Below are positions 1 through 105 of a stretch of DNA of 19,182 bases, one piece after another (position 1 is the stretch's first letter; every line of letters starts with the position of its first letter). Below the pieces are notes generated by a model. The model worked only from the letters and a program-made list of their open reading frames with translations, was not told where the DNA came from and did not search any database. This DNA is from a virus (lineage: Duplodnaviria > Heunggongvirae > Uroviricota > Caudoviricetes), in IMG/VR virus record IMGVR_UViG_2706794676_000003; one strand, written 5' to 3'. Made by a program: the position numbers and the translations under genes.

Positions 1-41
1 GCTTTGAACTCTTTAGAGTAACGTTGGGTTTTTCTGCTCAT
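1..41 (-). CDS. IS3-family transposase OrfA, N-terminal 14 codons only (partial, continues beyond window start)
   Basis: Minus-strand ATG at 39-41 preceded by AAGGAG (48-53) with a 6-nt spacer; translation MSRKTQRYSKEFKA... resembles IS3-family OrfA N-termini (IS600-like, from memory). Not in the ORF track because it runs off the window. Confidence 0.45.
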   Translation of the reverse strand, partial: MSRKTQRYSKEFK

Positions 42-105
42 TATTAGCTCCTTCTGATGCCATTCTATTTCAGGAAGGAGTGTCCGTTAAACTCAGGCTA
101 CCTCA
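1..105 (-). mobile_element. IS3-family insertion sequence, terminal ~105 bp (partial; element continues leftward out of the window)
   Basis: Read on the minus strand from position 105: TGAGGTAGCCTGAGTTTAACGGACACTCC..., a TGA-initiated terminus with a GGACAC motif as in IS3-family inverted repeats; 64 nt in there is AAGGAG followed by ATG (position 41) and an OrfA-like N-terminus. The other end is outside the window, so no inverted-repeat pair or target-site duplication can be confirmed. Confidence 0.5.

Follow-up and report, generated by a model that had tools for sequence, protein, structure and literature searches.

Insertion sequences (IS) and defective prophages are both recurrent features of Shigella genomes, and the closest described counterparts of the locus presented here come from these two fields. 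IS600 belongs to the IS3 group of the IS3 family, and was reportedly first isolated from Shigella sonnei by Matsutani and colleagues in 1987. It is one of five IS that expanded in all Shigella, its recent activity being greatest in S. sonnei (Hawkey et al. 2020, PMC7373316). An example of IS-driven prophage decay in this genus is the Stx prophage of S. dysenteriae 1, which has been crippled by IS (PMC7819885). With the IS-driven pseudogenization and prophage decay documented in these bacteria (PMC7373316), our locus shares the organism group, the IS and the outcome, i.e. a gene inactivated by insertion. In contrast to general prophage decay in Shigella, however, it apparently carries just one lesion, recent in appearance, within a module that is otherwise near-identical to the corresponding module of intact E. 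coli prophages.

The second point of reference are the Rac-like prophages, with which the prophage studied here and its relatives share the same gene order, running from the lysis cassette via trkG, a ParB-like gene (ynaK), a TAGT-like gene, terS, terL and the portal gene through ydaY and the tail genes to J. Annotation of these relatives includes the names trkG, ynaK, ydaY and tfaR, and phage Rac-SA53 matches the window at 89%. In the late operon of intact relatives, upstream of the part covered by the window, the interval between lysis cassette and terS holds trkG, encoding a potassium transporter, a gene with a ParB_N domain and a PF20691 (TAGT) gene (L001:276-3605, L009:5409-8735). The Rac prophage of E. 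coli K-12, which we take to be a short remnant without morphogenesis genes, differs in this respect from the copy studied here, which keeps its morphogenesis genes and is disabled, as far as visible, only in terS.

The window, by which we mean the whole stretch of 19,182 nt that was analyzed, is the entire contig CWTQ01000079.1 of assembly GCA_001257855.1, assigned to S. sonnei by its protein names, and ends within IS600; the contig sequence further upstream that the preliminary description wanted searched therefore does not exist. Its features are as follows.

1-105, minus strand: left end of IS600, with IRL, promoter-like site, Shine-Dalgarno sequence AAGGAG, orfA ATG and the first 13 full codons; the contig ends within the IS
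106-108, no strand assigned: CAA, probable right-hand copy of a 3-bp target-site duplication, duplicating terS codon 70 (Gln)
109-993, plus strand: 3' remnant of terS, codons 71-364 and stop, in frame and collinear with the 364-aa terS, with a Terminase_2 match
235-993, plus strand: 252-aa open reading frame called as terS, starting at Met113 of the 364-aa protein, without a good Shine-Dalgarno sequence
974-2275, plus strand: intact terL, large terminase, 433 aa, Terminase_6N and Terminase_6C
2278-19182, plus strand: remainder of the Rac-like morphogenesis module, collinear with E. coli prophages

The minus strand of positions 1-105 is identical to the left end of IS600 at every position (105/105 nt), a match far beyond chance, so that the IS3-family end recognized on this strand in the preliminary description can now be named, with the described layout present in full. 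Read in this direction, the IRL (TGAGGTAGCCTGAGTTTAACGGACACTCC) extends from 105 to 77 and a promoter-like site (TTAACG-17-TAGAAT), assigned to the IS600 transposase, from 90 to 62, followed by AAGGAG at 53-48, a 6-nt spacer (ctaata) at 47-42 and the ATG at 41-39, from which the orfA frame translates as MSRKTQRYSKEFKA and continues past the contig end. In IRL, promoter-like site, Shine-Dalgarno sequence and OrfA N-terminus, the visible 105 bases thus show no difference from IS600. The IS3-family match expected from a BLASTN search was likewise obtained: in 5426 complete E. coli genomes, megablast of the 105 nt returned full-length matches of 100% identity (E = 4e-47), 3009 of the 5426 genomes had a place with a query coverage of 80% or more, and the E. 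coli features underlying the matches are annotated as 'IS3-like element IS600 family transposase'.

A complete reference copy of 1264 bp (L008:2501-3764), whose positions 1-105 (L008:2501-2605) are identical to those of the window, illustrates the remainder of the element. This copy split a ninF gene and carries a 3-bp CGC duplication on both flanks; its OrfA matches HTH_Tnp_1 (1.5e-20) and its OrfB rve (3.5e-26), with a programmed frameshift between orfA and orfB marked by PGAP. Its two ends have TGAGGT...GCGGACACT in common and agree at 24 of the first 45 positions, whereas the IRR of the window copy lies beyond the contig. According to ISfinder, isoforms of an IS share at least 95% nucleotide identity with the reference; over the visible 105 bp the window copy is IS600 by nucleotide identity, an assignment that covers the first 105 of 1264 bp, the other 1159 bp lying outside the window.

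The position of the insertion became apparent from relatives that lack the IS. In ten phage records and hundreds of E. coli chromosomes, homology to the window begins at position 104 with 99-100% identity, and the terS gene of these IS-free relatives (1095 nt, 364 aa; e.g. L001:3796-4890, or WP_000089447.1 as annotated by PGAP in L002) starts 205 nt upstream of the aligned position 104, i.e. 210 nt before the insertion point. The intact gene reads ...CAG ACT GCA CAA AAG CGG with a single CAA, and the window reads ...GGCTACCTCA CAA AAG CGG. From position 91 onwards the terS frame of the window is open, and it is collinear with codons 71-364 of the intact gene, from which the remnant differs by 4 nt in 888 nt. 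Because the 364-aa terS of the relatives starts 210 nt before the insertion, the comparison shows that IS600 interrupts terS after codon 70, in the orientation opposite to that of terS. Retrieval of genomic places via the TerL and MuF-like proteins of the window, both widespread in E. coli, yielded an uninterrupted terS in 20 of 20 cases (364 aa in 19 of them, 355 aa in L027), and the terS/IS600 junction was present in none of the complete E. coli genomes (0/5426). The preliminary description had located the IS end 130 bp upstream of terS: the distance from 105 to 235 was computed correctly, but the ATG at 235 is the internal Met113 and the intact relatives place the insertion within the gene. 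What held up was its fallback claim of a truncated terS, the 364-aa gene being split after codon 70.

The CAA at 106-108, suspected earlier to be one half of a direct repeat, directly adjoins the IS600 terminus and is likely a target-site duplication, the other copy being deduced from an exact 70-aa product, as the DNA to the left lies beyond the contig. The contig stops 105 bp into IS600 because the short-read assembly could not resolve a multicopy IS, and the allele was reconstructed as 2362 bp that consist of terS nt 1-210, followed by the reverse complement of IS600 and window positions 106-993. The predicted left junction then reads ...GCGCAGACTGCACAA joined to TGAGGTGTACTGGC..., the observed right junction ...GGCTACCTCA joined to CAAAAGCGG..., and the uninterrupted terS GCACAAAAGCGG. 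The left fragment of the reconstruction contains terS codons 1-70, the duplicated CAA and then the TGA of the IS tip as stop (MSRPDWG...SAQTAQ); with this TGA in the terS frame, translation of the left product would stop after exactly 70 aa. The protein collection contains precisely this sequence under the name 'Uncharacterised protein [Shigella sonnei]' (CSF19232.1/CSM48753.1, 13 contigs), and the exact 252-aa remnant is deposited as 'Terminase small subunit [Shigella sonnei]' (CSF46370.1/CSM92782.1); stub and remnant were matched as separate proteins and may not share one genome. The exact 70-aa protein speaks for a simple insertion in which the 3-bp target CAA was duplicated, and we infer the left junction from this protein match, not from DNA.

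The right junction recurs in a second assembly, GCA_001257015.1 (L005), whose contig stops 76 bp into the IS, and in other S. sonnei assemblies TerS is represented by 'partial' proteins of 243-244 aa beginning right at a contig end. Exact-pattern scans with both junctions gave 0 hits in viral contigs, GTDB species-representative genomes and JGI metagenomes, which is unsurprising because S. sonnei drafts are absent from these sets, and a terS::IS600 insertion site was not found in the supplements of Hawkey et al. 2020 (PMC7373316).

The explanation we favor, to which we assign a probability of about 0.88, is that IS600 (1264 bp) transposed into terS of a Rac-like lambdoid prophage of Shigella sonnei, inserting between codons 70 and 71 in the opposite orientation and duplicating CAA, with probable loss of TerS function. 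On this reading the insertion splits the gene into a 70-aa N-terminal stub, ended by the TGA of the IS tip, and a promoter-distal remnant.

Among the competing explanations, the one that survives best, albeit with a small share of our confidence, holds that the IS end is the trace of a deletion or inversion brought about by the IS, instead of a simple insertion, and that the 5' part of terS together with the upstream genes (lysis cassette, trkG, ParB, TAGT) lies elsewhere or was lost. As the window ends in the IS, adjacency to these genes is unseen, and Shigella genomes are heavily rearranged by IS, with IS-flanked deletions of the same prophage in L016, L024 and L027. A stub of exactly 70 aa, with Gln70 kept and followed by TGA, is nevertheless annotated in S. 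sonnei within the same submission series, and the 3-bp duplication agrees with the reference IS600 copy, both of which speak for the simple insertion.

We regard as very improbable, and as already refuted by the intact homologues as far as sequence can tell, that IS600 lies intergenically, 130 bp upstream of a complete terS starting at 235, and acts by polarity only, so that terS and the late genes would be out of reach of the late promoter. In its favor, no ATG, GTG or TTG precedes the ATG at 235 in the open terS frame of the window, and automatic gene callers annotate a 252-aa 'terminase small subunit' there. Against this stands that the frame is already open from 91 and collinear with codons 71-364 of a terS annotated both by PGAP and in phage records, and that direct reading of positions 215-234 revealed no convincing Shine-Dalgarno sequence ahead of the ATG at 235. 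Methionines occur in intact TerS at positions 1, 53, 113 and beyond.

Family profiles point in the same direction. The phrog_51 profile ('terminase small subunit') matches intact TerS over residues 1-364 (E = 2.4e-76), and the first 112 aa alone, all of which precede Met113, match profile positions 1-97 (E = 2e-35). Since phrog_51 spans the whole length including these 112 residues, the 364-aa form is the real terS, with its N-terminal 112 aa a conserved part of the family. The Terminase_2 profile of Pfam is matched by the remnant with 33.9 bits and by the intact protein with 35.1 bits (cut-off 26.1); the match begins only at residue 122 of intact TerS, and the remnant retains nearly the whole region (profile positions 19-129). 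The gene thus belongs to the small terminases by both Terminase_2 and phrog_51. The terS of the window is, however, not a complete coding sequence: codons 1-70 are split off by the IS, translation could begin no earlier than at Met113, and the remnant is without its own start codon, ribosome-binding site and conserved N-terminal module.

For the N-terminal 70 aa, the sole result from Pfam and NCBIfam was a resemblance to the IS66 TnpA family that stayed below threshold (25.4 bits, cut-off 28), for which reason an HTH-type fold of this module is but a guess. A sequence search of the PDB returned a weak match only, between the Terminase_2 HTH region and a small terminase (E = 0.23). TerS further contains a pair of four-cysteine motifs, CRYC ... 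CPKC (window 481-492 and 631-642), within an insertion of about 90 aa relative to the Terminase_2 profile (200 residues on 110 profile positions); this insert is possibly a zinc ribbon, which would be unusual for small terminases.

Transcription offers the polarity argument little help either. Neither window positions 1-235 nor the antisense strand of the full IS600 contains an outward promoter-like site, and the two terminator-like hairpins on that antisense strand are no more than occur in shuffled sequence. In lambdoid late operons, moreover, Q-modified RNA polymerase reads through terminators, as is textbook knowledge for lambda Q, and an antitermination-Q-like gene is found upstream in the intact relatives. 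The cut-off from the late promoter or IS-dependent expression proposed in the preliminary description, that is, a loss of late transcription or an IS-driven one, is not supported by these sequence features.

Downstream of terS, the packaging and morphogenesis genes appear in good order. The start of terL overlaps the end of terS by 20 nt, and the exact TerL protein of the window is present in 25,405 blocks of the assembly collection. Positions 2278-19182 hold the genes for portal, MuF-like protein, scaffold-like protein, major capsid, head-tail proteins, tail tube, tape measure, tail tip and J, the latter cut by the contig end. When window positions 104-14818 are compared with the intact prophage of E. 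coli NCTC10444 (L020), the 14.2 kb aligned outside N-runs contain 2 mismatches and 0 indels. That a prophage segment of S. sonnei is near-identical to prophages of unrelated E. coli, namely L020 (NCTC10444, from a calf) and also L012, suggests either a recent horizontal spread of a Rac-like phage or very strong conservation.

The window contains five N-runs with a total of 1119 nt (2799-3064, 8825-9081, 14819-15069, 16792-17060 and 18017-18092), all of them scaffold gaps whose size is an estimate. It is these gaps that make the portal, tail-tube, tail and J genes look split or frameshifted, and none of these genes counts as a further lesion; long spurious open reading frames on the minus strand (e.g. 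17227-18651) likewise pass through gpJ thanks to N-runs. Outside the N-runs, terS::IS600 is the only lesion visible within the window.

Other members of the family carry lesions of their own. In L024 and L028 (both 8616-10020), the portal gene has lost 2 bp and is broken into parts of 286 + 189 aa; in the window the AT in question (at about 3083-3084) is still present, and this deletion was rejected as a candidate lesion here. In other strains, terS is broken independently by the loss of 1 bp from an A5 run (L003:9886-9889, corresponding to window 119-123) that lies 11 nt downstream of the IS600 site. This leaves products of 86 aa and 252 aa, the former of which occurs on 70 contigs, some of them complete E. 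coli chromosomes; the deletion may be genuine and recurrent, or else an error in sequencing the homopolymer. IS are involved in three further cases: in L027, an IS1 separates terL from the portal gene and the tape-measure gene harbors an IS3-family element; L021 has an IS between the MuF-like and DUF6651 genes, and L016 an IS1-flanked deletion of morphogenesis genes. The IS hits in L016, L021 and L027 are independent damage to the same prophage family.

With regard to function, insertion of IS600 into terS would mean that no functional TerS is made. A prophage without functional TerS could not initiate packaging of its own DNA, which it would be unable to recognize, although the visible terL, head and tail genes look intact. 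Given the 20-nt overlap of terL with terS, loss of terS translation may in addition lower translation of terL through lost translational coupling. As the remnant has nearly all of the Terminase_2 region, some residual TerS activity from a start at Met113 is conceivable, and the knock-out of TerS is a probable one.

It is conceivable, though we would give it no more credence than the polarity scenario, that the terS::IS600 prophage still packages DNA without normal pac specificity by means of a Met113-initiated TerS without the N-terminal module, in the manner of a gene transfer agent (GTA), or that it donates capsid and terL to a satellite or another prophage with its own TerS. This thought arises because the remaining morphogenesis genes in view hardly differ from those of intact prophages. 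Least probable of all is an artefact in which an assembler or scaffolder wrongly joined 105 bp of IS600 to the prophage contig: the window is a short-read draft scaffold with five N-gaps, yet the identical junction in the independent assembly L005, the 'partial' proteins at contig ends of other S. sonnei assemblies, as expected from breaks at the same IS, the matching 70-aa stub and a break exactly at the canonical IS terminus all contradict it.

Inactivation of a prophage by an IS, as seen here, is routine and already known biology. The practical consequence concerns annotation, in that the 252-aa protein called 'terminase small subunit' in these S. sonnei assemblies is a 5'-truncated fragment of a pseudogene whose other half would be the 70-aa 'uncharacterised protein'; both entries should be corrected accordingly, and the prophage would have to be scored as packaging-defective despite its complete-looking structural module. 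For S. sonnei itself, terS::IS600 may be read as one further data point on IS600 activity and prophage domestication.
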